DNA from: a virus
Taxonomy: Duplodnaviria; Caudoviricetes
Direction: 5' to 3' (one strand)
IMG/VR virus record: IMGVR_UViG_3300020578_000107
Location: 1-53,738 of that record
Length of the DNA stretch: 53,738 nt
Shown here: positions 11,201 to 27,155 of the stretch, in pieces
Position numbering within the stretch: the first letter of the stretch is position 1
Layout of the letters: every line of letters starts with the position of its first letter
Translations under genes and position numbers: made by a program
The notes under the pieces: model-generated
Told to the model about the DNA's origin: nothing
The model's database searches: none
The model's input: the letters and a program-made list of their open reading frames with translations, nothing else

Positions 11201-14200
11201 ATTCTGAAAATATTTTAGATAATAATAAAATACTTGTAAATCCAAGTATTTATAGTGGTAGACATTCAATTTCAGGAATCGGATCAACTACATTTTCATA
11301 TACTATTTTTAATAAACCAGAAAAGTTATCATACACGGATTCAGAAGCTACGCTTTCATATACAACAAATTCTTTAACAGCATCGGGTGGAATTTCTAGT
11401 ATTAGAATAAATTCTGGTGGATATGGATATGAAAGTTTGCCTGCTATCGTAAGAATAGATTCCTTAGATGGATCTGGCGCTGTAATAGAACCATCAGGAT
11501 CTACCGTAGGAAGAATTTCTTTAACGGAGATACTCGATATTGGATTTGAGTACTCATCGGATCCATCAATAAGACCTATTGCAAAAATTCCACAAGTTTT
11601 AAAATTAAAAACAACATCATCATTTGAAAGAATAGGTATTTCTTCAATAGGAAAACAATATAACATATCTCCGGATCTAATTGTCATAGATTCGATTACA
11701 AAACAAATTGTTTCCGATGTTGATCTAAGATATAAACTTGGAGATAAAGAAGTTACTATCTTAAAAAATACAGGTGGAATTAGTAATTCAATTCCAGAAA
11801 TTATACCAATCAATAATCCAAATGGTGTTGGAATTAATTCAATATCTTATAATGAATCAACAAAAGAAGTTACTGTTGGATTAGCAGTAAGTTATAGTTC
11901 TTCTAATGATTATCCATTTTCGGTTGGTGATAAAGTAATTATTGAAAACACTAGAGTTGGATTTTCAACCTCAGCAAAAGGATATAATTCCTCTTCATAT
12001 GGATATGCTTTGTTTACCTTGAAGGCAATAGATCCAAATATTGGTGGAGCAAATGGAACTGTAACTTATAGTCTAGGAGAATATCTATCATCTGGAGAAA
12101 ATCCAGGAGTATTTAATTTATCTCTTTCTGCGGGAAGAATTACTCCACAAAAGTTTTTCCCAATATTTGATGTTAAGTTGAAAAAAAATGAACTTAGAAT
12201 TGGAGAAATAGTTTCTACCGAAACTGCAAGTGGCACAGTTGAAAAATGGTATTTTGATAATGATATATTGGTAGTTTCTACAACTCAAGATTTTAAATCT
12301 GGTGATATATTAGTAGGATCTTCATCAAAAACAAAATGCTCAATTGAATTAGTTTTCTCAAATGATGCTGACTATAATATTTCTGCAACATCATTAGTTA
12401 AGAGGGGTTGGAACTTAGAGTCTGGATTTTTAAATAATGATTACCAAAGAATACACGATAGTGATTATTATCAATATTTTTCATACTCTTTAAAATCAAA
12501 AATTGAGTATGAAGATTGGAAAGATCCTGTCAGTTCAATGAACCACACTGCAGGATTTAAAAAATTCTCAAATTTAATCATTGAATCAAATGACGCATCT
12601 TTTAGTGGAATATCAACCGAACAAAACTTGGGAGATTTCACTGCAACTGCGGATATTATTAATGTTGTTGGATTAAACTGTGTTAATGACTTCGATCTTG
12701 CAAGAGAAAACAAATTGACAATAGGATCTGATATTATTTCAGATGAAATAATATTAAATTCATCTTCAATTCAAGATTATTTTGAATCTGTTGGAAATAG
12801 AGTTTTAGTAATTGATGACATTAGCAGCAGATTTAATAGTAATCCAAGGCCAACTCCTTTTAGTGCAGTAGATTCGTTTGATCTATCAACTGTAAGATCT
12901 AAAAAATACATATCATATATTGTAGATAGAAGATTCACTGGAGAAAAACAAATAAGTGTTACTACACTGTTGCATAATGATCTTTTTGGATTCTTAAATC
13001 AATATGGAAGAGTTGAAACCGCAAATGATCTTGGTTCATTTGATTTTATCATTAGTGGAAGTGAAGGGCAACTTTTATTCTATCCAACAAAATTCCAAGC
13101 AAATGATTATAGTATAAATCTATTCTCATATGATATAAAGAATACTGTCTCTGGAATAGGCACTATCAATCTAGGAGATACTGTAAAAATAAACAGTAGC
13201 ATCAAAACAATTCCAGTGGGATTTAGCACAACAACTAATTTAGTCAGCTTTGCTTCCACATATAGAGCATCAAAAATTATTGTTCAATATGCAGCGATAG
13301 ATAATTCTTATTTCGAATATGATGAACTTACTATTATTCACGATGGATCATCTGCTAATATTCTAGAATATGGACAACTATCTACTAATATTTTATCCCC
13401 ACTTGGATCAAGTGGGATAGGAACTTATAGTGCATATCTTTCGGGGTCGGAGGTAAAGTTAGATTTTACTCCAAATGTAGGATTATCTACATCTTATCAT
13501 GTCAATTCAATTTTGGTTTCAATAGCAAATACCTCATCATCAGGAATTTCTTCAACAACTCTGAGAACTGGCAAACTAGAATCAGCAATAACTTCTATTG
13601 CTTCTTCAACATCACCAACACCCACAGTAGTTTCCGAGTATGAAAATACTTATTCGGCAGCTTATTATATTGCAAGTGTAGAAGATACTACAAATAATCA
13701 ATATCAAATATCTGAAATTATTGTTGTGGATGATGGAACAACACCATCAATAACTGAATTTGGTATTTTGCACACATCTTCAAATATTGGAAATTTTGAT
13801 GCTAGCATTTCTGGTGGAAAAACAAAATTAACATTTACTCCAATAGCAAATTCAAATGTTGAAGTAAGAGTTTTCCAAAATTCACTAAGATTTTTTGATG
13901 AAAATCTTACAGAATTAATTGATTTTACAAATGCTTTAATTGATACAGGAAGCGGAACTTATGATGGAACAGAATCTGATATAAGAAGAATTTTTGAGTT
14001 AACACATAAAGGACTTCCAATATTCAGAAGAAATATTTTAGGAAATTCTTCAACCGTTGTTGATTTGACAAATAACCTTATTAAAATTCCCAACCATTAT
14101 TTTGTAACTGGCGAAGAATTGAGGTATACCCATTCCGGACAAGGAACTTCACAATCTATTGGTATTTCAACAGAAACAATAGTTGGAGTGGGAACAACTG

Positions 14201-17184
14201 ATAAGTTGCCTCAAACTGTATATGTCATAAAAGTTACCGATGCGGCAATAAGATTAGCATCATCAGCAGAAAATGCTCTTAAAACTGTTCCAATACCTCT
14301 TATTATTTCATCTGTTGGAATTGGCACATCTCATGCATTAACTTCTAAAAAACAAAATACAAAAGTTCTGATATCGATCGATAATGTAATACAATCACCT
14401 GTTGTATCATCAGCATTGACTTCTATTTTACTGAAAGAAATTTCGTCTATTGATCAAATAATAACAGTTTCTGGAATCACTTCTTTCTTCAGTGGAGATT
14501 TGATTGAAATTAATAATGAGATTATGAAAGTTGATGCTGTTGGATTTGGTAGTACTAATGTTTTCTTAGTAAAACGTCCATGGATGGGAACAGGAATATC
14601 TTCTCATGCCAATGGATCTCTTGTTAAGAAAATTGAGGGTGATTATAATATAATTGACAATACAATAAACTTTGTTACTGCTCCATATGGATTAGTTCCA
14701 ATTGGAACATTTACTGATGGACCAAATAATATCGATTATTTGGGAATAAGCACATATTCTAATTTTAGTGGTAGGAGTTTTATAAGATCTGGTATACCAG
14801 ATACTGATAAAGAACCATATACTAATAACTATATTTTCAATGATATCTCACCACAATTTACCGGATATTCAACTTCATTTATTTTAAAATCAAATGGACA
14901 AAATATAACAGGAATTTCGACAGATAATGCTATTATTTTAGTAAATCAAGTTTTCCAAGGTCCAAAGAAACTTGATGCTCCAGTTAGTTTTGTTAGTGAT
15001 TATGTTCTCAGAGAAAATTCTGGTATAACAAGCATTCAATTCAGTGGATTCATATCTACTACATCATATGATGTAAACAACAATAACTTACCTCGCGGTG
15101 GAATAATTGTTTCCGTTGGAGCATCGAAAGGATTTGGGTATCAACCAATTGTAGCAGCTGGTGGAACTGCTATTATTTCTGGATTAGGAACAGTAGCATC
15201 TATTAGTATAGGAAACAGTGGGTCAGGATACAGATCAGGTTTACAAGTTGTTAAAGTTGGAGTAAAAACAGAAAATCTGGAAAATGTACAAATTACATAT
15301 GTTGGAACAGCAACAATCTCCGATGGAAATGTTGTAAGCGTTGCAATTACAAATCCAGGAACAGGATATACAACATCAAATCCACCCTTTGTAGTTTTTG
15401 ACGATCCTTTAAATTATTTTAATCTACCATTAGTTTATAGCTCTTTAAATCAAGGAATTGGAATTGGTACTGGTGCAAGAGTAAATGTTGTAGTTGGTCA
15501 GGGATCAAGTGTCATAGACTTTGAAATCACAAATTTTGGGTATGGATATGGTCAAGGAGAAATTTTAACTGTTGGGGTAGGTGGAACTGTTGGAATACCA
15601 ACGAACACCTCTTTATCATACAGTGAATTCAATATTACAGTTGATAGAACATTCTCAGATACATTCTCAGGATGGACATTCGGAAATCTTCTTGTCTTAG
15701 ATTCATTTGACAACTTATTTGATGGTATCAAAAAGTCTTTCCAAATTACTTCCAATGGATCCCCAAGATCTATTAGATCAAGATCTGGTTCTAATATTGA
15801 TGTTGAATCAACCCTTTTAGTCTTTATTAATGATATTTTACAAGTTCCCGGAGAGGGTTACATATTTGATGGTGGCAGTTTTATCGATTTTACAGAAGCT
15901 CCAAAATCAGGAGATAAATCAAAATTACTCTTCTACCAGGGAACTTCTTCTGTCGATGTCACTAATGTTGACATATTAGAAACTATTAAACCAGGAGATA
16001 TTGTAAGATTGAATGATGACAACATTTCTTATAAACAAAATGATAGACTTGTCACTGATATTATTTCAATCGATACTCTAAAAACTAATCCATATAAGAG
16101 TCCAGGTTTATCTGATGATCAAGCATATGTACGTCCTATAATTTGGTGCAAACAAACTGACGATTTATTCATTAATGGAAAAGAGGTTGGAAAAGATAGA
16201 GTTTTATATGAACCATTGATTTATCCAAATACAAGGATTATACAGACAGTTGGATCTGCCTCGACGATAATTTTTGTTGAAAGTGTAAAAACTTTCTTTG
16301 ATAGTAATAAAGAAAATTATTCGGGACAAAACAGAATTAGATTAGTTTCACAAGAAAATATTGTGGGAGCATCAGCAACTGCAATCGTATCGATTGCAGG
16401 GACTATTTCCTCAATTTCAATTACAAATTCTGGACTTGGATATACATCTGCACCAACTGTTATTGTTGGTAATCCAGTTGGTCTTGGATCTACACAAAGA
16501 GCATTAGCAACCTCAACTATATTTGATGGATCTGTAACTTCTATTCAGGTATCTTTCCCTGGAACTGGATATACTTCTTCAACTCCACCATCAGTTTTGA
16601 TAGATTTTCCAAGATCTTCATATTTTATAGAAGACATATTATCAATTTCTTACAGCGGTGATTTTGGAATTATTTCTGGAATTTCAACAACTACTGTTGG
16701 AGTAGCATCAACAGGAATTATTTTTGATCTTGTAATACCACAAGATTCTTTCCTAAGAGATACCTCTATTGTTGGTACTGCACTGACAGTAAGTGGAATT
16801 CAAACTGGATATTATTTTGTTGTTTATAATTCAAATGTTGGCAGTGGAGTTACTTCACTAAGATCTGATGGTTCTATTGTAAGCATTGGAAGTTCATTCC
16901 TAGATAATGTCTATTATGCATCCAAAGTTTCAATTGCACAAACAAGTGTTTCCGGATTTGGAGTAACTTATGTTGCAAAAGTAACTGTCAGTGTTAGTGA
17001 TTACAACGGACTCAGTGGAATTGGTTATAGTAGTTTCTTTGGAGAGTATAGTTGGGGTAGAATTTCTGCACCATCTAGACCAAATCCCAAAAACTTTACT
17101 TATTATAATAATGGACTACTGGGAATTTCTACTTCTCCAATCGTTGAAAGATTTAACCCTCTTAAATATTCAAATTATAATTAA
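5206..17184 (+). CDS. gp7: giant baseplate wedge initiator, gp7-like (3992 aa), with a YHYH-like domain and beta-repeats
   Basis: Between gp6 and gp8; N-terminal FYSSKGTDQSFEILFRSLY; IHDSDYYQYFSY..HTAGFK segment; NHGxxTGD and GxGYxxxP repeats. Confidence 0.8.
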   Translation: MVVTRIKISSVVENQLPSFVRDEFPLVNEFLSEYYSSLEYQGGVLDLLQNIDRYIKLDQLTNLVDSTTITSEINLGDATINVQSTKGFPDSYGLLKIGSEIITYKSKTNTSFNECVRGFSGVISHQNPLKPDNLIFTTSAREEHVNGSSVLNLSILFLKEFYKKVKKQFSPGFDERDLFSNLNQSLFIKQAKDFYSSKGTDQSFEILFRSLYGEDVEVIKPRDYLFTPSDAQYRITKDLIVEEIEGNPFDLLNRTLYQDEDSYFKSTFGSVNNVEKVSRGGKDYYAISLDYDPNVDLEKDSQRSDFSIHSQTKLVTSCSIGSDVIDVDSTIGFPNSGFLVADLSNGTSLTISYTSKSYTQFYGCTGIDQELISGQNIRINSYAYGFVGSDVVKVRVTGVLSNLNYGVDTKYHDEGESIQIKTIGKDSNDVRANNWIFNIATTYDIDTLTLTDLVNFSYRIVTIDNHSIYVGDSVKLIFTDSTEVVSSVVEVLNQKSFIIADQGQIDVNKKYKVQKLISKTNALNFSSSNIYSTNVQNTYQDGKNSFYVTSSSLPSYLNQSLLVKDRSVTFSGFFNGVDLVIGNHGFYTGDAVFYSAESVSNSLGIQDQIYFVNRVNSTTINLSRSRSNLYEDKFISFNATVTNNKLVFNDFYNQTLDNQKLVRNILSPEIASNSTETSPGPIGILVNGVEILNYKSRDSLFYGPLEEINVLSPGSNYDVINPPILSISDPVGFGATGFCEVEGEFEEIQVIDGGFDYITEPVISVTGGSGSGVQAKAQLIDFSHAVSFNATSFGDVNLTNDTITFSNNHKFRNGEVVIYDPEGQQSVGGLSTNSTYYISTQTEKQIKIHTNANDALTNTNPINLTSYGVGNHRLISVQLKKKISSVILTNKGTKYKNRKISISPVGINTFSNIIEAKNHGYSTGDIIVYSTTGSEIGGLQNGKSYFVTSLDENSFKLSNVGTSSTIGIGSAIVGVSTSLDFYFKNKQYVNLSGKGTGNHIFNYPQINVSISGKIGVFSPSGTDYQAVLQPIVRGQIKSVFLESGGTNYGSEKILNFNRQASITLKSGQGAEVIPVLSNGKIVQVLITNPGSGYNSPPTLIVSGPGIGAKLTPIISNGSLTEVKVINGGVGYDTALINVVSSGTGAEFKSVPQKWTVNLVERNIQSNQITDDDGIIDTGINSNYGLQYTHLYAPRKLRQTIFSREVINGQISYLPDLKIENGKESLSNTHSPIIGWAYDGNPIYGPYGYSTINGGSVKPIESGYYLSLKPNRPSTSIFPEGFFVEDYSYRSRGDLDEYNGRFCVTPEFPNGVYAYFATIDGSGVESSPPFRNYRKPVFPYFIGNSYKSKPNQYNFSPLSNQDNIDLKNTTFFRNTTPYNLLDKNSGYDFIVNSNNIKRQNSIVRYVKPGIVDSIGIKTGGFNYKIGNKVIFDNSKSGGQGVSAEVNLLNGKQIRNISVNSVSISGVEFISNPQGIIGFATSPHNLSIPSNNVIITGLNTSTSNLNGNNVVGVRSETFLLSVGVGTTGSTGIVTYFSVFGPLDFPNIRENDVLKIDSEKLKVLNIDRESSRIRVLREYEGSTGSSHTVSSLIYEDSRKFTVSYNPRIDLKSTKYNKEIYFNPPESIGIGTTSGIGIGATLFFSNPGVGASSLFIPTRTIYLPNHNLSTGDELIYSSNGGNPITASTNGISTFQLVDDQIVYVAKVNDSLIGIATNQVGVGSTGIFVGINSSVTTEILYFTDPGLGEIHSFTTNYKDIVVGEVNKNLVTVSTAETHGLNVNDIVNISCLSGISTTYVIKYDDYNRRMVIDPKSFISGDVDASNDTIQILSHGYITGQKVIHTSSSPAGGLENGEIYFVVKVDNNRLRLAKTYYDSTLSDPNYVNITSVSSGTLSLVNPPITGTRNQQIIFDVSDSSLSYNISFNKYPAFKFDIYTDSSFDTTFDSRKKTGELNIIRNGILGVDANATVTINLSNDVPNTLYYQLTPVDYDTNNITKLEIISDSENILDNNKILVNPSIYSGRHSISGIGSTTFSYTIFNKPEKLSYTDSEATLSYTTNSLTASGGISSIRINSGGYGYESLPAIVRIDSLDGSGAVIEPSGSTVGRISLTEILDIGFEYSSDPSIRPIAKIPQVLKLKTTSSFERIGISSIGKQYNISPDLIVIDSITKQIVSDVDLRYKLGDKEVTILKNTGGISNSIPEIIPINNPNGVGINSISYNESTKEVTVGLAVSYSSSNDYPFSVGDKVIIENTRVGFSTSAKGYNSSSYGYALFTLKAIDPNIGGANGTVTYSLGEYLSSGENPGVFNLSLSAGRITPQKFFPIFDVKLKKNELRIGEIVSTETASGTVEKWYFDNDILVVSTTQDFKSGDILVGSSSKTKCSIELVFSNDADYNISATSLVKRGWNLESGFLNNDYQRIHDSDYYQYFSYSLKSKIEYEDWKDPVSSMNHTAGFKKFSNLIIESNDASFSGISTEQNLGDFTATADIINVVGLNCVNDFDLARENKLTIGSDIISDEIILNSSSIQDYFESVGNRVLVIDDISSRFNSNPRPTPFSAVDSFDLSTVRSKKYISYIVDRRFTGEKQISVTTLLHNDLFGFLNQYGRVETANDLGSFDFIISGSEGQLLFYPTKFQANDYSINLFSYDIKNTVSGIGTINLGDTVKINSSIKTIPVGFSTTTNLVSFASTYRASKIIVQYAAIDNSYFEYDELTIIHDGSSANILEYGQLSTNILSPLGSSGIGTYSAYLSGSEVKLDFTPNVGLSTSYHVNSILVSIANTSSSGISSTTLRTGKLESAITSIASSTSPTPTVVSEYENTYSAAYYIASVEDTTNNQYQISEIIVVDDGTTPSITEFGILHTSSNIGNFDASISGGKTKLTFTPIANSNVEVRVFQNSLRFFDENLTELIDFTNALIDTGSGTYDGTESDIRRIFELTHKGLPIFRRNILGNSSTVVDLTNNLIKIPNHYFVTGEELRYTHSGQGTSQSIGISTETIVGVGTTDKLPQTVYVIKVTDAAIRLASSAENALKTVPIPLIISSVGIGTSHALTSKKQNTKVLISIDNVIQSPVVSSALTSILLKEISSIDQIITVSGITSFFSGDLIEINNEIMKVDAVGFGSTNVFLVKRPWMGTGISSHANGSLVKKIEGDYNIIDNTINFVTAPYGLVPIGTFTDGPNNIDYLGISTYSNFSGRSFIRSGIPDTDKEPYTNNYIFNDISPQFTGYSTSFILKSNGQNITGISTDNAIILVNQVFQGPKKLDAPVSFVSDYVLRENSGITSIQFSGFISTTSYDVNNNNLPRGGIIVSVGASKGFGYQPIVAAGGTAIISGLGTVASISIGNSGSGYRSGLQVVKVGVKTENLENVQITYVGTATISDGNVVSVAITNPGTGYTTSNPPFVVFDDPLNYFNLPLVYSSLNQGIGIGTGARVNVVVGQGSSVIDFEITNFGYGYGQGEILTVGVGGTVGIPTNTSLSYSEFNITVDRTFSDTFSGWTFGNLLVLDSFDNLFDGIKKSFQITSNGSPRSIRSRSGSNIDVESTLLVFINDILQVPGEGYIFDGGSFIDFTEAPKSGDKSKLLFYQGTSSVDVTNVDILETIKPGDIVRLNDDNISYKQNDRLVTDIISIDTLKTNPYKSPGLSDDQAYVRPIIWCKQTDDLFINGKEVGKDRVLYEPLIYPNTRIIQTVGSASTIIFVESVKTFFDSNKENYSGQNRIRLVSQENIVGASATAIVSIAGTISSISITNSGLGYTSAPTVIVGNPVGLGSTQRALATSTIFDGSVTSIQVSFPGTGYTSSTPPSVLIDFPRSSYFIEDILSISYSGDFGIISGISTTTVGVASTGIIFDLVIPQDSFLRDTSIVGTALTVSGIQTGYYFVVYNSNVGSGVTSLRSDGSIVSIGSSFLDNVYYASKVSIAQTSVSGFGVTYVAKVTVSVSDYNGLSGIGYSSFFGEYSWGRISAPSRPNPKNFTYYNNGLLGISTSPIVERFNPLKYSNYN

Positions 17185-18766: not shown

Positions 18767-21700
18767 ATGCCACAAGAAACGAACCTTAACGTCTCCCCCT
18801 ATTTTGACGATTTTGATGAAGATGAATCATATCATAAAGTTCTTTTTAAACCAGGATATCCTGTTCAGGCAAGAGAGTTAACAACTTTACAATCAATATT
18901 ACAAAACCAAATTGAAAAATTTGGAACTCATTTTTTTAAAGAGGGATCTGTTGTTATTCCCGGTAATGTAACATATAAAAATGATCTCAATAGTGTTAAA
19001 CTGGAAAATACATTCGGTGGAATATCATCAGATTTTTATTTGAGTGTATTAGTCAAGAAAAGAATAAGAGGCGAAAGAAGTGGCATTACTGCTGTAATTG
19101 AAGACTTTTTACCAGTAGGACCTGGTATTGATAATGTAACAATTTTTGTCAGATATTTATCGTCCGATTCACAAAATAATTCGGATAAAACTTTTTATGA
19201 TGGGGAAAATTTAGTAGTTGATGAAGATGTAACTCAATTAAAATTTGAAGTTGATGTTAATACATTTAAACAAATAGAAAAACCACCTATAATTTTAGGA
19301 ACGGGAGAAGCATTTGCTACTACTGTTGCAAATGCAAGTACATCAAAAGGATCAGCAGTTTTATTGCAAGAAGGAGTTTATTTTATTAGAGGAACTTTTG
19401 TAAATGTTCCAGATTCTAGGGCATATATTAACCCATATTCTAATATATCAAGTGCAAAAGTAGGTTTTAGAGTTTTTGAAAGAATTGTAAATGCTTTTGA
19501 AGATGAAGATTTGTATGATAATGCCCAAGGATTTTCCAATTTTGCTGCTCCGGGTGCAGATAGACTTAGCATTACTACAAAGTTAGAAGTACTGCCATTA
19601 GAAACTGTTGATGCAGAAAATTTTATTCAATTAATTGAAATTAGAGACGGTGAAATTGCAAGTATAACAAAGAATACCTCATATAATATAGTAGCTCAAG
19701 AATTTGCGAGAAGAACATATGATGAATCGGGAGACTATTATATTGATCCCCCAATTATTAAGGCACAAGAAACTTTAAATGATTTAAGAGGAAATGATGG
19801 AATATTTAGTGAAGGGCAATTAACATATGATGCACAAATTCCAGCAAGCGATGAAGTTGGAACATATAATATTTCTCCAATGAAGGCTTATGTTCGAGGA
19901 TTTGAAGTTGAAACCGTAAGTCCTGTATTTTTAGATTTTCCAAAAACAAGAACTACAAAAACATTAGAAAATCAAAGCATAAATTATTTTTCCGGGTCTA
20001 CATTTACTCTTAATAGAGTTCATGGGTCCCCAATTGTAAGCACCGCTTCAACTTATTTTGTAAGTCTCCGAGATTCTAGAGTAGGAACCTCTCAAACAAC
20101 TCCACCGGGTAATGAAATTGGAGTTGCTCGTGTTTATGATTTTGCATTAGAATCTGGATCATATTCTACATCAAATCCAAATGAAAATGAATGGGATATT
20201 TCTCTTTATGATGTCCAAACATATACAAATATAACTTTAAATGAACCCATAACATTAACAACTCCAACCCATATTAGAGGAAAGGAGAGTGGTGCTATTG
20301 GATTTCTTAGATATAATGTATCTGCTGGAACAGCATTGACTGTTTATGATTCAAAAGGAAAATTTTCTCTTGGAGAAAAATTAATATTTGATGGCGTAGA
20401 AAATACTAGGGTTATTAGAACAATTAGATCATACGGAACTAGCGATGTAAAATCCATATATGGAATAGTAGGGACAGCATATACTTTTACTGCTGATACC
20501 ATCCAAAAAACTTCTATACCAGTAGGTCAAGTTAGAATAACTGCGGCTGATGCTACACTTGGAATAAGCACCGTCACCTCTACCAGTGCATTTTTTGTTG
20601 GGATTGCTACTGTTGGAAATTTAGTTGCTTTTTCAAATCAATCTACAAGCATTTCTGGATTATCTACTGTTACATTTGCAAGAATTCAATCAGTATCGGA
20701 TAGATCAATAACAATAGCTGGAGTAACTTCTGTTACTGGTGTATGTGATGGAGCTTTACCTACAACTGCAATTACTCCATCAGATTTTAGAATTGTATCA
20801 ACAAGTTTACAAGAATCACCTGATAATTCACTGTATACTAGACTACCTAAAAGTTATGTAGCAAGTGTAGACTTAACGGATTCCAATTTAATAATCAGAA
20901 GACAATTTGATGTAGTTATTACTTCTAATTCTACTGGGGCAATAAATGCAGGTCCAGACGAAACATTTCTTCCATTTGACGAAGAAAGGTATGTATTGGT
21001 TGGAGAAAGTGGATTAGTAGAGTCTTTAAGTCAAGATGAGTTTTCTTTTACAAATGGATCAAAAACTCTAACGATTAATGGTCTTTCCGGAAGTGGCAAT
21101 GCCAAGTTAATTGCAACTTTGAGAAAGACTAATGTAAAATCAAAAATTAAAAATAAAAATAGAATAAGAACACTTATAATCGACAAATCAAGAAATTCTT
21201 CATCTGGAATAGGATCAACTACCTTAAATGATGGATTATCTTATGGAAATTATCCATATGGAACGAGAGTTCAAGATGAAGAAATTTGTCTACTTGTTCC
21301 CGACGTTATGGGAGTTTATGCAGTTTATGAGACAACAGATACCAATGATCCAACTCTACCATCGCTAGTATTAACTTCTTTAAGTGGACCAACTAATAAA
21401 ACAGGAGATCTTCTACTCGGGGAAGAATTTATCGGAGAAACTAGCCAAGCGATTGGAGTTTATACTGAAAAAATTAATGATTTGAAGGTAGAGTTTAGTT
21501 ATCTAAACTCAAATAACTTTATTGCGGGAGAAAAGATAACTTTTAGAGAGTCTAAAATCACTGCATTTATTTCATTGATTGATGAAGGTGATACGAACAT
21601 AAGTTCGTCATTTGCATTAGATGCAAATCAAAAAGAAACCATATATGACTATTCGAAACTAATTAGAAATAAAAACTCAAAGGAACCAACTAGAAAATTA

Positions 21701-24379
21701 AAAATTGTTTTTGAATCTGCAAGTTTTTCAGATTCAGATACAGGAGATTTAACCACTGCAAATTCTTATGAGCAGTTCGATTATTGTTCAATTAAAAGTG
21801 TATATGATACTGTTGGAAACACTGATATTATTGATGTTAGACCAAGGGTATCGCCAATTTCACCAACAGTAAATTCAAGATCTCCATTTGAATTCTTGTC
21901 TAGATCATTTACTGCGTCAGGTAACTCTGCTAGAAATATTTTAGCTTCGGATGAATCAATACTTTTATCTTATTCGTTCTATTTACCAAGAATTGATAAG
22001 ATTGTTCTGGACAAAACAGGATTTTTCCAACTAGTAACTGGAATTCCTGATGAAAATCCACAAATTCCTTTTATAAATGACACTGTTTTAGATGTAGCAA
22101 CAGCATATCTTCCTCCATATATTTGCAATATCAATGAAGTTGATATTCAAATGAGAGAGCATAAGAGATATACGATGGCGGATATAAGCAGACTTGAAGA
22201 TAGGATAGAAACATTAGAATATTATACATCGTTGTCATTGTTAGAAACTAACACTGCTACGTTTAATGTAACTGATTCAAATGGTATAAACAGATTTAAG
22301 TCTGGATTTTTTGTAGACAATTTTTCTACAACAGAAAGACAAGATAAATCCACTATCGTTAAAAACTCCGTTGACATCAATAATTTAGAACTTAGACCAA
22401 CTCATTATACAACCTCAGTTGATTTACTTCTTGGAACAAATTCCTTACTCGGTATTGGTAATTCAGTTAACACACTAGCAGATCCTAGAACTGATACTAG
22501 TTTAATTGGAACAGGAGTAAAGAGAACAGGGCAACTTGTCACTTTGGATTATGACCAAGTTCTTTTGCTAGATCAACCATATGCATCTAGAGCAGTAAAT
22601 GTAAATCCATATGCAGAAGATTTTTATAACGGAACAATACAACTATTCCCATCATCTGATGTATGGGTAGATCAAGTTAGATTGTCTGCAAATACACTAT
22701 TAGTTGAATCAAACTTTATTGAGTCTTTGGGTCAATTTGATATTAATCAACAATCTGGATTCTCGCCAATAACTTGGAATAGTCATGAATCTGCATGGGC
22801 TGGAAATGGTTCTATGGGCACAAAGGTATTAGATACAAAACTAATACCTTTTATGAGATCAAGAAATATTGAATTTATTGCAAAAAGATTAAAACCACTA
22901 ACAAGAGTTTATTCATTCTTCGGCGGAATAGATGTCAATAAATTTATTGTTCCAAAACTTCTTGAAATAACAATGACTAGTGGAGTTTTTCAAGTCGGAG
23001 AAGATGTTATAGGAACTTTTGATACTCCCGGCACTTCATCACCTAAAATATTTTTCAGAGTAGCTAAACAAAATCACAAGTATGGAACTTACGATAATCC
23101 ATCGGATGTTTATGTAAAAAATCCATACAATCAAAATATTAATATTCCAGATTCATACTCTGCCACTTCAACAATTCTTAATGTTGATACATATACTCTT
23201 TCAAATCAACCAAATGGTTTATATGAAGGATATATCGCTGTCGGAATGAAATTAAGAGGATTGACCAGCAAAGCTGAGGCAAGAATTAGTGATATTAGAT
23301 TGATAACTGATCAATCTGGTGCTATTCTTGGATCTTTCTTTATTCCAGATGGAAATATCACGGCAAATCCAAAGTTTGAATGTGGATCAAAGGTTTTCAG
23401 ACTTACATCTAGTAGAACAAACTCTACTATATTTGGCACATATTCAACTAGCGCGGAAGAAAAGTTCTTAGCGGAAGGAAAAGTTAATGTTGTTCAGGAT
23501 AACATTATTGTTACAAGACCTCCTAGATATGAAGCACCTCAAGATGCACCTTATATTTCCTCAGGTGGTGGTGGATGGGCACCATCATCTGAACCAGTAG
23601 ATAATGGTGGTGGTTTTATTGGACCAGAACCCCCACCACCAGTACCAGTAGATACTAGAAGAGAAGCATATTTTAATAAAGGAAAACCTGGTCTGAGTAA
23701 AGGAGATCAAAAGAGATTGATAACAGATCTAATGGCAGCAGGTATGAACAAGAAAGACGCTAAGGCTCTTGTAAATAATAAATCAACACCATCTGATATT
23801 GCTTCTGCTGTTGAGTGGTTTAATAATACCCAGTATTCAAAAGATATTAATAAGAAACTTATCAATGAAACTTATGTAAATGGAGTAAAAACAAAGGTAG
23901 AAACCTCAGCACAAGAGACATTTAAAGGAGATAAACGATATCAAACTATGATTACAGCGGGGGATAAAACAATTGTTGGAGGAACAGATAAAAAGGGAAC
24001 GGCGGGCAGAAAAGCTGAGCCAACAGTTGGTCCGGGTGCTGTGTTGGCGCGACTATCTCTACCAACATCCGCACCAACATCAAGAGCGTTTGCTAAATCA
24101 AATCCACAACACACAGTCAAAAATCCCCCAGCTCCTGCACCAGCACCAGCAGCAAAACCAAGTTCTCCACCTTCTTCTCCACCTAGCGGTGGCGGCGTGT
24201 TTGGTGGCGGTCGTGGCGGCGGTGGCGGCGGCGGTGGCGGTGGCGGTGGCGGCGGTGGCGGTGGCGGTCGTGGCGGCGGCGGTGGCGGCGGCGGAGGCAA
24301 AAAATCCGATATCCGCTTAAAGAGGAATATAACTGCAATCAACTCCGCACTAAATATGATTATTAACTTATCAAAATGA
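18767..24379 (+). CDS. DUF4815/VrlC-like virion structural protein, N-terminal part, ending in a Pro/Gly-rich tail and an S74 cleavage motif
   Basis: NLNVSPYFDDF..LFKPGYPVQARELTTLQS, APGADR, ARRTYDESGDY, RFKSGFFVDNF, PFMRSRNI; ends GGKKSDIRLKRNI. Confidence 0.85.
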   Translation: MPQETNLNVSPYFDDFDEDESYHKVLFKPGYPVQARELTTLQSILQNQIEKFGTHFFKEGSVVIPGNVTYKNDLNSVKLENTFGGISSDFYLSVLVKKRIRGERSGITAVIEDFLPVGPGIDNVTIFVRYLSSDSQNNSDKTFYDGENLVVDEDVTQLKFEVDVNTFKQIEKPPIILGTGEAFATTVANASTSKGSAVLLQEGVYFIRGTFVNVPDSRAYINPYSNISSAKVGFRVFERIVNAFEDEDLYDNAQGFSNFAAPGADRLSITTKLEVLPLETVDAENFIQLIEIRDGEIASITKNTSYNIVAQEFARRTYDESGDYYIDPPIIKAQETLNDLRGNDGIFSEGQLTYDAQIPASDEVGTYNISPMKAYVRGFEVETVSPVFLDFPKTRTTKTLENQSINYFSGSTFTLNRVHGSPIVSTASTYFVSLRDSRVGTSQTTPPGNEIGVARVYDFALESGSYSTSNPNENEWDISLYDVQTYTNITLNEPITLTTPTHIRGKESGAIGFLRYNVSAGTALTVYDSKGKFSLGEKLIFDGVENTRVIRTIRSYGTSDVKSIYGIVGTAYTFTADTIQKTSIPVGQVRITAADATLGISTVTSTSAFFVGIATVGNLVAFSNQSTSISGLSTVTFARIQSVSDRSITIAGVTSVTGVCDGALPTTAITPSDFRIVSTSLQESPDNSLYTRLPKSYVASVDLTDSNLIIRRQFDVVITSNSTGAINAGPDETFLPFDEERYVLVGESGLVESLSQDEFSFTNGSKTLTINGLSGSGNAKLIATLRKTNVKSKIKNKNRIRTLIIDKSRNSSSGIGSTTLNDGLSYGNYPYGTRVQDEEICLLVPDVMGVYAVYETTDTNDPTLPSLVLTSLSGPTNKTGDLLLGEEFIGETSQAIGVYTEKINDLKVEFSYLNSNNFIAGEKITFRESKITAFISLIDEGDTNISSSFALDANQKETIYDYSKLIRNKNSKEPTRKLKIVFESASFSDSDTGDLTTANSYEQFDYCSIKSVYDTVGNTDIIDVRPRVSPISPTVNSRSPFEFLSRSFTASGNSARNILASDESILLSYSFYLPRIDKIVLDKTGFFQLVTGIPDENPQIPFINDTVLDVATAYLPPYICNINEVDIQMREHKRYTMADISRLEDRIETLEYYTSLSLLETNTATFNVTDSNGINRFKSGFFVDNFSTTERQDKSTIVKNSVDINNLELRPTHYTTSVDLLLGTNSLLGIGNSVNTLADPRTDTSLIGTGVKRTGQLVTLDYDQVLLLDQPYASRAVNVNPYAEDFYNGTIQLFPSSDVWVDQVRLSANTLLVESNFIESLGQFDINQQSGFSPITWNSHESAWAGNGSMGTKVLDTKLIPFMRSRNIEFIAKRLKPLTRVYSFFGGIDVNKFIVPKLLEITMTSGVFQVGEDVIGTFDTPGTSSPKIFFRVAKQNHKYGTYDNPSDVYVKNPYNQNINIPDSYSATSTILNVDTYTLSNQPNGLYEGYIAVGMKLRGLTSKAEARISDIRLITDQSGAILGSFFIPDGNITANPKFECGSKVFRLTSSRTNSTIFGTYSTSAEEKFLAEGKVNVVQDNIIVTRPPRYEAPQDAPYISSGGGGWAPSSEPVDNGGGFIGPEPPPPVPVDTRREAYFNKGKPGLSKGDQKRLITDLMAAGMNKKDAKALVNNKSTPSDIASAVEWFNNTQYSKDINKKLINETYVNGVKTKVETSAQETFKGDKRYQTMITAGDKTIVGGTDKKGTAGRKAEPTVGPGAVLARLSLPTSAPTSRAFAKSNPQHTVKNPPAPAPAPAAKPSSPPSSPPSGGGVFGGGRGGGGGGGGGGGGGGGGGGRGGGGGGGGGKKSDIRLKRNITAINSALNMIINLSK
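24188..24298 (+). repeat. GGC/GGT trinucleotide tract encoding poly-Gly with two Arg
   Basis: Visible (GGY)n run, very GC-rich compared with its surroundings. Confidence 0.95.
24351..24356 (+). promoter_or_regulatory. candidate late promoter core TAAATA for the stand-alone S74 fragment gene
   Basis: CTAAATA 20 nt upstream of ATG24376, similar spacing to other late promoters here; lies in coding sequence so could be chance. Confidence 0.35.
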
Positions 24380-24630
24380 CAATTTTGAATAAATTATGTG
24401 AGATTAATGGATATCATTATAGCTGGAACGATAAAATGAAAGAATTGACTGGGGTTAACGGATCAGAATATGGTGTCATAGCTCAGGAAGTACAAAAAGT
24501 ATTTCCTGAGATTGTAAAAACTGGTTCTGATGGGTATTTGGAAGTAGATTATATTCAGATAATACCTATTTTAATAGAAGCAATAAAGGAATTAAAGGAA
24601 GAATTGGACCACTTAAAACAAAATAAATAG
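24376..24630 (+). CDS. peptidase S74 / intramolecular chaperone fragment lacking the SDxxxK catalytic motif
   Basis: ILNKLCEINGYHYSW..YGVIAQEVQKVFPEIV..VDY..LIEAIKEL plus coiled coil; ATGA overlap with the upstream stop. Confidence 0.88.
   Translation: MTILNKLCEINGYHYSWNDKMKELTGVNGSEYGVIAQEVQKVFPEIVKTGSDGYLEVDYIQIIPILIEAIKELKEELDHLKQNK
24624..24629 (+). promoter_or_regulatory. late promoter core TAAATA for the DUF4815 C-terminal gene
   Basis: AATAAATA 22 nt upstream of ATG24651. Confidence 0.55.
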
Positions 24631-24650
24631 AAAATAATAGTAAAAGTAAA

Positions 24651-27155
24651 ATGAAAGTTATAGATCCATTAGCACAATCATTTTATGTTGAAAATGAAAG
24701 GGGAGTTTTTGTAACTTCGGTTGATTTATATTTTAGTACAAAAGATCCAATTATTCCGGTAACAATTCAACTCAGGTCAATGGAACTTGGGTTGCCAACA
24801 CAAAAGGTTTATCCTTTTAGCGAAGTTGTTGTTGATCCAAAAGATATTATTGCATCTGAGGACGGAAGATCTCCAACCAGAATTACATTTCCATCTCCTG
24901 TTTATTTGCAAGGATCAAAATTTCATGCATTAGTAATACTATCAAATTCTCTTGAATATAACGTTTGGGTGTCAAGACTTGGAGAAATTGATGTCTCTAC
25001 CGCAACGCAGGTAGAATCAAAACAAATTTTGGTCACTAAACAACCAACATTAGGTGGATTATTTAAATCACAAAATGCACTGACTTGGAATGAAAGTCCA
25101 TATGAAGATTTAAAGTATACATTATACAGAGCAAACTTTAAAACAAGCAATGGCAATTTTAATTTTTATAATCCAGAATTGTCAGTAGGAAATAATCAAA
25201 TTGCAAAATTAAATGATAATCCTCTGGAATTTGTTTCAAAGAAAATAAGAGTAGGGTTAGGAACTACGGTACAAGATAATAATTTACAACTGGGAAATAC
25301 AGTATTTCAATATGCAAGTAATGCAACAGGAAATTATGTTGCATCAGCAGGAATTGCAACAGGAACTTTAAGAGTTATAAATGCAGGTATTGGATACACT
25401 CCGTCATCCGAAGTTGCAACTTATGTTGGTGTTGCTTTAACCAGTATAACTGGAAATGGAAGAAATGCCACAGCAAACGTAGTAATTACTAATGGATCAG
25501 TTACTTCTGCCACCATTTTAAATGGGGGAACTGGTTATGTAGTTGGTGATGTTTTAACCGCAAGTCAAGTAGGATCCCAAACTCTGGGAAGAAATTTACA
25601 ACTATCAATTTCTTCTTTAAGAGGAATAAATGAATTAGTCTTAGATAATGTTCAAGGAGATTTTATAACGGGAACAGGAAGTACAATTAGATATATTAAC
25701 AGTTTAGGTATATCAACCGATCTAAATGCATCTGTTGGCGGAAATGTTTTAGTCGCAACTGATGGTATTCAATCAGTAACTGATGGTTTAAACATTAAAG
25801 TTAATCACAGAAATCATGGGATGCACGCTGGCGAAAATATAGTCAGAATATCTAATGTCTATACTAACATAAAGCCAATAAAACTAACATCAGATTATGG
25901 AAAAGATTCAAATGGCGATATTTTAGTAGACAATACTATTAATTTTGCCACATTTGAGAATGTTGGAGTAAGTAGCACTAATCCAGGATATATTTTGATT
26001 GGAAATGAAATTATTGCATATGAAGGTTTGACTGCAAATTCATTGACAGGTATTACGAGACAGATTGATCAAACGTTAGGGTTCTCATATTCTTCCGGAA
26101 CTTCTGTTTATAAGTACGAATTAAATGGAGTTTCTTTGAGAAGAATTAATACAACACATACTTTACAAGATTCTACTGATCCAGATCCAATAGATTTTGA
26201 TTATTATAATATAAAATTAGATATGTCCCAAGATGGGAAAACAAGTACTTTACCTTATGGTCAAGTTGATAGAAGTGTTGGAAGCGTTTTTCCAAAATTA
26301 TATGCAAATGAATCAAAATCTCTGGGTGGTCCTTTTATTAATGCAACGCAAAATATTCAATATGAAATTGCAAGACCAAACATTCAAACACTTGCCATTC
26401 AGGGAACAAATATTAGTGCTAACGTAAGGACTGTTTCTGGAACTAGTGTTGATGGAAATGAAAATTCATTTGAAGATAAAGGATTCCAACAAATATCCTT
26501 AACCTCTAATAATTATTTTGATTCTCCAAGACTAATATGCTCAAGAGTTAATGAAACTGAAAGACTTACTACATTGCCTGGAAACAAGTCGTTAGTTGTT
26601 AACCTAACATTAGAATCTTCAAATGGATTTTTATCCCCCGCTGTCGATTTAGATAGGGCATCAATGATATTTGTTTCCAATAGAATCAATAGTCCCATTC
26701 AAAATTATGCGACAGATAATAGAGTTTCTACTATTGAGGATGACCCATCATCTTTTGTTTATGCTACAAATTCTATTCAACTTGAAATTCCAGCAACTTC
26801 GTTGAAAGTTCTTGTCAGTGCTTATGTAAATGTTTTTAGCGACTTTAGAGTTTTATATTCAGTAAAGAATGATCCAAATGAAAAGTCAATATATTATCCA
26901 TTCCCAGGATATTCAAATACAGCAAATGCAGACATAGTAGTTCAAGATGCTAGAAGTGATGGAACCTCAGATAAAAAAGTCGTGAAGAGCGGTGCTTTTG
27001 GGTTTGAAAGTAATCAAATAACTTTCAATGAGTATGAATTTACTGTATCAAACTTACCATCATTTAAGTTTTTTAGCATTAAAATAATTGGATCTGGAAC
27101 AAATCAAGCATTCCCACCAAGATTAAAAGATTTAAGAGTTATTGCTTTGGCATGA
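24651..27155 (+). CDS. DUF4815/VrlC-like virion structural protein, C-terminal part
   Basis: Begins DPLAQSF..GVFVTSVDLYF; LFKSQNA.TW..EDLKYTLYRANF; ends PPRLKDLRVIALA. Confidence 0.85.
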   Translation: MKVIDPLAQSFYVENERGVFVTSVDLYFSTKDPIIPVTIQLRSMELGLPTQKVYPFSEVVVDPKDIIASEDGRSPTRITFPSPVYLQGSKFHALVILSNSLEYNVWVSRLGEIDVSTATQVESKQILVTKQPTLGGLFKSQNALTWNESPYEDLKYTLYRANFKTSNGNFNFYNPELSVGNNQIAKLNDNPLEFVSKKIRVGLGTTVQDNNLQLGNTVFQYASNATGNYVASAGIATGTLRVINAGIGYTPSSEVATYVGVALTSITGNGRNATANVVITNGSVTSATILNGGTGYVVGDVLTASQVGSQTLGRNLQLSISSLRGINELVLDNVQGDFITGTGSTIRYINSLGISTDLNASVGGNVLVATDGIQSVTDGLNIKVNHRNHGMHAGENIVRISNVYTNIKPIKLTSDYGKDSNGDILVDNTINFATFENVGVSSTNPGYILIGNEIIAYEGLTANSLTGITRQIDQTLGFSYSSGTSVYKYELNGVSLRRINTTHTLQDSTDPDPIDFDYYNIKLDMSQDGKTSTLPYGQVDRSVGSVFPKLYANESKSLGGPFINATQNIQYEIARPNIQTLAIQGTNISANVRTVSGTSVDGNENSFEDKGFQQISLTSNNYFDSPRLICSRVNETERLTTLPGNKSLVVNLTLESSNGFLSPAVDLDRASMIFVSNRINSPIQNYATDNRVSTIEDDPSSFVYATNSIQLEIPATSLKVLVSAYVNVFSDFRVLYSVKNDPNEKSIYYPFPGYSNTANADIVVQDARSDGTSDKKVVKSGAFGFESNQITFNEYEFTVSNLPSFKFFSIKIIGSGTNQAFPPRLKDLRVIALA

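Follow-up and report, generated by a model that had tools for sequence, protein, structure and literature searches.

The intramolecular chaperone that is used only once has its textbook example in the Peptidase_S74 domains, which sense correct folding of the trimer and then cut themselves off. Completion of an active site or fold only on association of two polypeptides is known from split inteins and from flavivirus NS2B-NS3; these have no homology to the system described here, in which the unit is trimeric and a single hydrolytic cut would be made. For T5 pb1, the structural study (PMC4690869) describes a Ser1264/Lys1269 pair that cuts the Thr1263-Ser1264 bond, a loop following the scissile Ser that winds round the trimer, and an oxyanion hole that requires an Arg (Arg1250) of the adjoining upstream triple beta-helix. 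The oxyanion hole of K1F likewise requires an Arg of the adjoining upstream triple beta-helix, according to the corresponding paper (PMC3742443). Tail fibers may also depend on separate assembly factors. In a summary of such factors (PMC7289586; T4 gp38/gp57A, R-pyocin and P2/Mu Tfa-type chaperones), a small gene lies directly downstream of the fiber gene, and its product is thought to aid trimerization from the C-terminal end without remaining in the particle. In the literature searched, no S74 domain was described as split or as acting in trans, although an older in-trans experiment may exist.

The locus analyzed here lies in a viral DNA stretch of 53,738 nucleotides (the window). We consider it likely, with a probability of about two in three, that it encodes a naturally split Peptidase_S74 chaperone, consisting of a tag on a client protein and a helper gene, which would act by docking, trimerization and self-cleavage. 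The pieces belong to the same PF13884 family, with the same fold, as the S74/ICA domains of K1F endosialidase (3GW6), T5 pb1, the GA-1 and phi29 appendages and MyRF (7DC3), and they share the initial SDxxxK motif, the C-terminal coiled coil and the location at the C-terminal end of a tail or baseplate protein. The differences are that two genes are used here, with the catalytic loop on the tag, the rest on a free protein and helix 1 on both; that the sequence directly upstream is a Gly linker, with no triple beta-helix visible there of the kind that precedes the known domains; and that one body gene can adjoin two tags, as in the related locus L009. The 'tentacle' hairpin is missing, as in MyRF. 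Like the small gene product, the gp38, gp57A and Tfa proteins are encoded directly downstream of a client and would assist its trimerization. They differ in their unrelated folds, and they lack a Ser-Lys site, a cleavable client tag and any sign of descent from an intramolecular domain.

Architecture of the locus

The features of the locus, all on the plus strand, are as follows.

18767..24379, plus strand: 1870-aa structural protein with a DUF4815 region at the N-terminus (Pfam PF16075, E 2.8e-59; S-SM2 alignment)
23546..24187, plus strand: lineage-specific, partly Pro-rich extension, residues ~1594-1807 (the S-SM2 alignment ends at residue 1593)
24188..24298, plus strand: Gly run (GGGVFGGGR, G18, R, G9) encoded by a GGC/GGT repeat (sequence; Gly-rich linker in related pairs)
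24299..24304, plus strand: Lys-Lys before the putative scissile bond (sequence; cut position by analogy to T5 pb1)
24305..24376, plus strand: 24-aa S74 tag SDIRLKRNITAINSALNMIINLSK, a loop with Ser1847 and Lys1852 followed by a copy of helix 1 (Pfam, tag profile, alignment, 3:3 model)
24376..24379, plus strand: ATGA stop/start overlap (junction geometry in related loci)
24376..24630, plus strand: stand-alone 84-aa S74 body with the second copy of helix 1, a GVIAQEV core and a C-terminal coiled-coil helix (Pfam, clusters, model)
24651..27155, plus strand: 834-aa protein downstream of the body (47% identity to S-SM2 residues 1699-2519)

Residues 1-1593 of the 1870-aa protein are 47% identical to residues 1-1666 of the S-SM2 protein and, judged by this alignment, represent the first two thirds, from the N-terminus, of the DUF4815/'VrlC' protein that cultured cyanophages have as one chain of about 2500 aa. 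The 834-aa protein corresponds to its C-terminal third. The extension at residues ~1594-1807 is missing from the aligned fused cyanophage proteins, and a tblastn search of 50,697 phage records with residues 1594-1870 retrieved nothing. The 37 residues upstream of the Lys-Lys pair are Gly-rich and of low complexity. In 10/10 tag-body pairs the tag follows a Gly-rich linker, which is otherwise unconserved, and the Gly run probably acts as a flexible linker ahead of the tag.

Translation of the large ORF confirmed the first-pass annotation of its end, ...GGGGGGGGGKK-SDIRLKRNITAINSALNMIINLSK*; the codon of Ser1847 is at 24305-24307 and that of Lys1852 at 24320-24322. The SDxxxK Ser-Lys motif that starts an S74 domain is thus present and is carried by the tag. 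An HMM comparison of both pieces with Peptidase_S74 had been proposed, and it divides the family between them. Positions 1-21 of PF13884 are matched by the last 26 residues of the large protein (E 0.0027, 18.4 bits, below the cut-off of 22), and positions 17-58 of 58 by the 84-aa protein (E 5.6e-11, 43 bits, same cut-off), so that tag and body jointly span positions 1-58. In a related contig (L010) the tag alone scored 26.5 bits. A profile built for the tag matched the window's copy with E 5.4e-13, the sole match in the record. In Pfam the 84-aa protein matched PF13884 alone, and no other family, including Tfa, gp38 and gp57A.

Seven tag residues (S1, D2, L5, K6, N8, I9 and L16) are invariant in 11/11 aligned tags, whereas the Arg at position 4 is variable (R/N/Q/L). 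In the codon alignment of the tags the Ser is encoded by TCC in 2/12 rows and by AGT or AGC in 10/12, and Leu by six different codons. Invariance of residues in spite of synonymous changes and of a TCC/AGY switch at the Ser codon indicates that the tag is under purifying selection. Mean pairwise identity was 0.60 for the tags and 0.64 for the bodies, and 0.08 for the linker outside its Gly-Gly columns.

The small gene was found as described beforehand, overlapping by ATGA and encoding GYHYSW, GVIAQEV, FPEIV, VDY and LIEAIKEL (ORF 24376-24630). The model of its product has a pLDDT of 91.7 and a C-terminal helix at residues 59-82. A Foldseek search with this model retrieved the ICA domain of MyRF (7dc3; E 2.5e-5, TM 0.82) as well as 3gud and 3gw6, and the body as modeled has the ICA fold; a trimeric state was seen in the 3:3 complex model only. 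About 30 cluster representatives of the body have 83-92 aa, 63-79% identity and a common start position, and the best fused relatives with full coverage are at most 55% identical. Thirty stand-alone bodies formed one branch against 70 fused domains (99/93; 98% of bootstrap trees), and on this phylogeny the stand-alone bodies have a single origin.

The junction and its recurrence in related phages

The domain is not contiguous in cis. The large ORF stops at 24377-24379, the body has a separate ATG at 24376, and the frame of the body is open for just three codons upstream of this ATG, to a TAA at 24364-24366, as first stated. Some 12 residues of the first helix (profile positions ~13-24) occur in both tag and body. 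Because helix 1 is present twice, no one-base repair yields a normal S74 domain, in agreement with the original reading.

An assembly or sequencing artefact might be suspected, given that the window was assembled from a metagenome and that the junction closely follows a GGC repeat. We give this explanation practically no weight. Contigs from other lake-water runs (4/4) were identical to the window over 24304-25000, without a single difference or gap, and show no continuous S74 frame, and the same layout occurs in independent contigs from other samples. All four contigs break within the GGC repeat (24203-24303), and the frame of the Gly run in the window rests on this one assembly; in all related loci the reading frame through the Gly linker is intact.

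The two pieces could also be joined during translation. Frameshifting or read-through would produce a single polypeptide whose S74 domain contains a duplicated helix of 12 residues, and the appearance of two genes would then mislead. At the stop in the window and in locus L017 the sequence A-AAA-TGA would allow a −1 slip running into the ATG, and in L128 tag and body share a frame with only a TAA and one codon between them. Such recoding is nevertheless very improbable, since there is no common slippery site and the shift needed would be −1 in 5/7 junctions, +1 in 2/7 and none in L128, so that all three frames are seen. Furthermore, the small ORF always begins with a Met of its own, which is conserved in position, and the orphan tag of L009 has no body after it. 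An ATGA overlap was found in 4/7 junctions and a gap of 1-2 nt in 3/7, and in 13 split loci the start of the small ORF falls in the interval from −17 to +7 nt relative to the end of the tagged ORF. Expression of the small gene by tight stop/start (translational) coupling seems the better reading of this geometry. The 24 runs listed as containing the sequence included no RNA run.

Promoter elements were considered as well. The TAAATA noted earlier 20 nt upstream is present, although its suggested role as a late promoter found no support and was rejected: the window has 7 copies of CTAAATA where chance would give 15. Of the full T4-type late box TATAAATA there are only 3 copies in the window, none at the junction. 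The conserved CTAAAT represents Leu-Asn codons of the tag helix.

The first-pass annotation had suggested looking for the same split in relatives. The layout of tag plus small gene recurred in at least 12 further distinct loci of lake and marine phages, none with one continuous frame. Among 18 loci inspected from the body search 9 were split, the other 9 being more distant and contiguous, and the split was also present in L049, L051, L052, L059, L088, L126 and L128. A regular-expression scan of the loci collected gave 11 with tag and body, a single orphan tag, 15 contiguous domains and 6 others, the last comprising 5 contiguous domains outside the body motif and 1 chance minus-strand match in the window. 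The tag-profile scan of IMG/VR yielded at least 8 loci among the matches listed, 2 of them split. In a survey of 72 loci, 39 had a single fused protein and 24 were split with no body detected upstream. Retention of the split in many related phages makes it look like a working two-part system.

The tag is the constant partner of the body. What follows the body differs between loci and may be the 834-aa gene, a gene with a SET domain, a Gly-rich gene of 127 or 141 aa, or another gene. Upstream clients are of three kinds: the DUF4815 protein, a 235-aa gp38-like protein and a 483-aa protein. By this comparison the module is portable between structural proteins. The contig of L009 holds two tags and one body, with the orphan tag at the end of a 1555-aa ORF, and one body can probably serve more than one tagged client.

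The small gene shows no general degeneration; it is intact and conserved in the ~30 clusters, and among the relatives examined it is lost only in L050, where the tag has acquired an in-frame TGA, a Ser to Arg change (AGT to CGT) and a 4-nt deletion. This decay, the dispensability of the module in many relatives and the resemblance of the junction to a staggered duplication of helix 1 could be taken as signs of an evolutionary relic, in which recombination or duplication accidentally broke an S74 domain and left behind a vestigial tag and a small protein that is useless or has another client. We regard this as improbable given the purifying selection on both pieces across at least 12 lineages and ~30 protein clusters, the movement of the module between three different client proteins and the restriction of tag decay to the locus without a body.

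Among the best 150 of 96,584 S74 relatives, full stand-alone bodies were only P0017 and P0180; P0037, P0184 and P0315 resemble fragments or short gene calls, and P0186, at the protein level, begins with a body-like piece. A tblastn search with the body against the 50,697 phage records matched 31, all below 60% identity and none covering 80% of the body. Of these matches 27 lie under annotated features, mostly fiber genes, and 4 are in records without annotation. By this search no cultured phage shows the split in the collection used, which may omit records very close to the window.

Docking model and proposed mechanism

Docking of the small protein in trans on the 24-aa tag, as initially put forward, is supported by modeling. 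The 3:3 tag-body complex scored 0.87 in each of 3 runs, the best of 3 controls reaching 0.13; the 0.87 mark is attained by 58/80 solved complexes and 2/110 mismatched pairs in a calibration that, in contrast to the present modeling, was made on single-chain pairs and with alignments of its own. Between runs the contacts agreed to at least 73%, and the partner pLDDT was 60-64. The confident interface comprises residues 12-30 of the 40-aa tag chain, and the tag Ser and Asp contact body residues 35-37 and 54-57. Chain residues 31-40, which form the conserved second helix of the tag, lie outside this interface, so the model leaves the retention of this helix unexplained. Solved structures exist of S74 trimers in the uncleaved state (3gw6, the T5 S1264A mutant and 7dc3), and the predictor may simply be reproducing these. 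The 3:3 model thus indicates likeness to solved S74 trimers, not that these chains bind.

With the split chaperone as the preferred reading, the following sequence of events can be proposed. From the stop/start geometry, a ribosome finishing the tagged protein would restart on the body gene. The body, going by its fold and by what is known of the family, would fold and trimerize via its C-terminal coiled coil. In the model, three tags dock on the body trimer, which would rebuild the complete S74 fold and gather three copies of the structural protein in register. A composite site, to which the tag contributes Ser and Lys and the body its GVIAQE pocket, could then cut before Ser1847. The body would leave with the 24-mer, and by analogy to T5 pb1 the mature 1870-aa protein would end in ...GGGKK.

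Release of the domain by autocleavage is predicted on two grounds, the retained Ser-Lys pair and the existence of relatives whose protein stops at the corresponding place. These relatives, such as L084, terminate in ...GGGMGKM*, a context like that preceding the Ser in tagged forms. The Gly run upstream, the unconserved K/M/R and the nonconserved tag Arg mean that catalysis may differ from that of known S74 domains or be absent. If it is absent, the rebuilt S74 domain would stay in the virion as a permanent, non-covalent trimerization knob or as an adaptor at the end of the Gly linker. The docking model fits such a non-cleaving cap equally well, upstream neither the canonical triple beta-helix nor its Arg sensor can be seen, and the residues before the Ser are unconserved. 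A Ser and Lys invariant in 11/11 tags despite the TCC/AGY switch are hard to reconcile with a mere docking peptide, and relatives of the L084 type end at the pre-Ser context as if the cleaved form were sufficient. On balance a permanent cap appears unlikely, though less so than the relic or the recoded chain, and we retain the self-cleaving split chaperone.

The three client families and the contig with two tags and one body raise a further possibility. The 84-aa protein might be a reusable, multi-client chaperone-protease for a portable 24-residue tag, so that a structural protein would turn into a client on gaining a Gly linker and the tag. The site would be composite, Ser and Lys being supplied by the client and the pocket by the helper, and the helix 1 copy of the tag would compete with that of the helper, such that the cleaved 24-mer is let go and the helper is recycled. 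This extension is tentative, and we are inclined to doubt it.

Significance for the S74 family

A conserved natural split would show that the S74 fold can be rebuilt from two chains, that an S74 chaperone can act between molecules and that a tag of 24 residues is enough for recruitment. It allows docking, trimerization and cleavage to be separated experimentally. The locus also documents a 2500-aa baseplate protein broken into separate genes at hinge points, and the split explains small 'hypothetical' genes beside fiber genes in aquatic T4-like phages. For trimeric proteins, it suggests a compact tag-and-helper pair that leaves a clean C-terminus. If the multi-client reading were true, a single-use intramolecular chaperone would have become an enzyme-like assembly factor, with a natural self-removing trimerization tag.

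An S74 domain divided between two genes

The junction and its surroundings comprise the following features:

5206-17184: 3992-aa ORF flanked by the gp6-like and gp8-like genes; YHYH domain (E 9.7e-25) and weak match to a baseplate wedge
18767-24379: ORF of the 1870-aa DUF4815 protein, whose C-terminal end comprises a Pro-rich segment, a Gly run of 37 residues, KK and SDIRLKRNITAINSALNMIINLSK*
24188-24303: GGC/GGT repeat coding for about 37 Gly-rich residues
24305-24376 (+): 24-aa C-terminal S74 tag with Ser1847 and Lys1852
24376-24630 (+): 84-aa S74 body, its start inside ATGA
24651-27155 (+): 834-aa protein

The last 26 residues of the 1870-aa protein matched Peptidase_S74 positions 1-21 (Pfam; E 0.0027, 18.4 bits) and the 84-aa protein matched positions 17-58 (E 5.6e-11, 43 bits); the whole record gave no other S74 match. 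The first-pass annotation had placed a tag on the large protein and the rest of the domain on a separate gene, and the ORFs and Pfam matches bore this out in every detail. Numbered from the Ser along a normal domain, the tag runs to position 24, whereas the 84-aa protein already begins at position 13. The first helix ('ALxKIxxL') therefore occurs twice and a single-base repair cannot restore a normal domain, as had also been proposed. The reading frame of the 84-aa ORF is closed three codons 5' of its ATG. The system is a member of S74 by sequence and fold, and it departs from the family in that its domain is not one contiguous cis unit.

The stretch was present in 24 lake-water runs. At the junction, contigs from all four other runs compared, none of these runs being marked as a possible source, showed zero differences and zero gaps over 24304-25000, confirming the split. 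These contigs, from short-read assemblies, all stop within the GGC repeat (24203-24303), so that support for the frame across it comes from the original assembly and from relatives; repeat length and frame at 24188-24303 are where the assembly is least certain. The split itself is not an artefact, because the layout recurs in independent contigs.

Recurrence, selection and origin

A search with the body led to 18 related loci that were inspected. The nine closest of them (L009-L017, 65-73% identity) were all split, with a Gly-rich end, SDxxLKxNI... and a stop followed by a small ORF beginning MxxLxKLxxInG. The nine more distant loci had an ordinary contiguous S74 domain. Further split cases were found in L049, L051, L052, L059, L088, L126 and L128. 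The split looked for in related phages was thus found, and none of the nine closest loci had the continuous frame that would have spoken against it. The start of the small ORF lies at −17 to +7 nt relative to the end of the tagged ORF in every one of the 13 split loci. Four of seven junctions compared had an ATGA stop/start overlap and three a gap of 1-2 nt; the frame from tag to body was −1 in five and +1 in two, and it is 0 in L128. A recoding event that fuses the halves during translation is much less likely given these varying frames and the lack of a conserved recoding site, and the sequences point to a two-gene arrangement with translational coupling. L128 (1501-1830) has tag and body in one frame with only TAA and one Lys codon between them, and is the sole locus where simple read-through would fuse them.

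Tag residues S1, D2, L5, K6, N8, I9 and L16 were invariant in 11 of 11 aligned tags. The Ser codon is TCC in the window and L011 and AGT/AGC in the others, Leu5 uses six codons, and helix residues I12, A15 and L16 also vary synonymously. Mean pairwise identity was 0.64 for bodies and 0.60 for tags, and 0.08 for the 30 residues upstream of the tag, Gly-Gly columns excluded. By this pattern both halves are under selection, and a relic of a broken domain is a much less likely reading. In L126 (368-500) the tag follows ...GPWAADWKARS with no Gly linker; the Gly run is therefore not obligatory.

The small protein had 49 matches of 46-147 aa. About 30 of them, cluster representatives of 83-92 aa with 63-79% identity and a common start, define a family in which the small gene is intact; among the relatives examined, one (L050) has lost it. 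Fused relatives with full coverage reached 55% identity at most. A tree built from 70 fused and 30 stand-alone domains placed all stand-alone bodies on one side of a 99/93 branch, and one change sufficed in 98% of bootstrap trees; a shared origin is consistent with this, though not proven with an 86-column alignment and an arbitrary root. The stand-alone variant is rare, with two 50% representatives of full bodies among the best 150 of 96,584 S74 relatives (E<=0.001). One related protein, P0186 (411 aa), has a body-like S74 piece first (MQQLNGKTFEW...) and a complete S74 domain at its end, and may represent a different type of split, or a tandem fibre that contains an internal S74.

The baseplate client and its fission

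The window is a 53.7-kb viral fragment (completeness estimate 25%) with a T4-like baseplate block in the order gp6-like, 3992-aa protein, gp8-like and DUF4815 protein. The 3992-aa ORF is a very large protein at the gp7 position. In cultured cyanophages S-SM2, P-TIM68 and Sf-FS3, DUF4815/'VrlC' is a single chain of 2510-2624 aa. Residues 1-1593 of the window protein correspond to its N-terminal part and the 834-aa product to its C-terminal part, which places tag and body at a fission point of a giant baseplate protein. In metagenomic relatives this protein is encoded by two or three genes (L004, L005, L006, L009:1-3000, L015:1-3000, L099:1-2500). The breaks recur at two hinge points, near residues 1347 and 1594 of the window protein, and the new C-termini are low-complexity Gly/Pro/Asn/Lys tails.

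Of 72 relatives of the 834-aa gene, 39 were fused, eight were split with a body gene upstream and one was left unassigned; in the other 24, all split, no body was seen, four of these having <140 nt of upstream sequence. Split forms without S74 have low-complexity, basic C-termini; one (L084) ends ...GGGMGKM*, resembling the residues before the Ser in tagged forms. The tag always lies directly 5' of the body, and the gene on the 3' side of the body differs (834-aa, SET-domain, Gly-rich and other genes). The SET-domain gene (133-155 aa; L049:2033-2473, L051:2006-2473, L059:2075-2476) lies between the body and 834-aa genes and is absent from the window; PF00856 matched at E 1e-12 to 1e-14 in those scanned (L049, L059). 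The module also occurs behind a 483-aa protein (L011) and a 235-aa protein whose match to a gp38 adhesin is weak (L010; E 1.5e-4, under the cut-off). Directly before the latter lies a large fibre with a normal contiguous S74, so that split and contiguous forms stand side by side on this contig (L010:2-3267), the 235-aa protein having its own body gene.

Two loci amount to natural experiments. On the L009 contig the DUF4815 protein is broken twice. The first piece, a 1555-aa ORF ending ...GKR-SDVQLKQNIVLINSALDRLININFNN*, keeps every invariant tag residue and is followed by the next structural piece with no body gene; the sole body gene lies 3' of the second tag. Such a pairing of two tags with one helper would be expected of a trans-acting system; L009 is a single case. 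L050 shares 84-91% DNA identity with L049. A loss of 574 nt has removed its body and the beginning of its SET gene, and its tag carries an in-frame TGA, a Ser to Arg change (AGT to CGT) and a 4-nt deletion. Loss of the body is therefore accompanied by decay of the tag, and the client does not need the module.

Predicted docking and proposed mechanism

The body alone was predicted with a pLDDT of 91.7 as H2-7, four short strands and H59-82. Its best structural match was the MyRF ICA domain 7dc3 (E 2.5e-5, TM 0.82), followed by GA-1 3gud and K1F 3gw6; a profile search of PDB sequences matched 7dc3, 6f45, 8jov and 3gud. The suggested 3:3 prediction, run with the client's last 40 residues (partner; 7-row alignment) and the body (31-row alignment), docked the two, scoring 0.87 in all three runs, while the highest of three control scores was 0.13. 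Runs agreed on at least 73% of contacts, and the pLDDT of the partner was 60-64. In calibration, 58 of 80 solved complexes attained this mark, as did 2 of 110 mismatched pairs, although the 3:3 job differs from the calibration jobs and two parts of a known fold can score well because the predictor has already learned that fold. The confident interface covers residues 12-30 of the tag chain, which comprise the final Gly residues, KK and SDIRLKRNITAINS. In the model the tag Ser and Asp lie next to body residues 54-57 and 35-37, the latter being the invariant AQE of GVIAQEV. This placement agrees with T5 pb1, where the loop after the scissile Ser wraps around the trimer at a level above the first hairpin (PMC4690869). 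Residues 31-40, the helix of the tag itself, were placed without confidence, and the model leaves their conservation unexplained.

The proposed reading is a tag-and-helper form of S74. The helper would be made by coupled translation and would trimerise, three tags would dock in the modelled manner and gather three client chains, and the rebuilt Ser-Lys site would cut before Ser1847. Trimerisation and cleavage are proposed because of family behaviour (PMC4690869, PMC3742443) and the conserved Ser-Lys pair. The main rival is a permanent non-covalent cap that leaves the client uncut. According to the same sources, canonical S74 receives its oxyanion-hole Arg from a triple beta-helix just upstream; here the upstream residues form a Gly linker and tag position 4 does not keep its Arg, both of which speak against cleavage, and the Ser-Lys pair favours the cutting helper.

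A literature search on S74 found no split or trans-acting form, the founding papers (Schwarzer 2007, Schulz 2010) lying outside its reach. Among 50,697 GenBank phage records nothing was near the small gene (31 matches, all <60% identity, none covering 80%).
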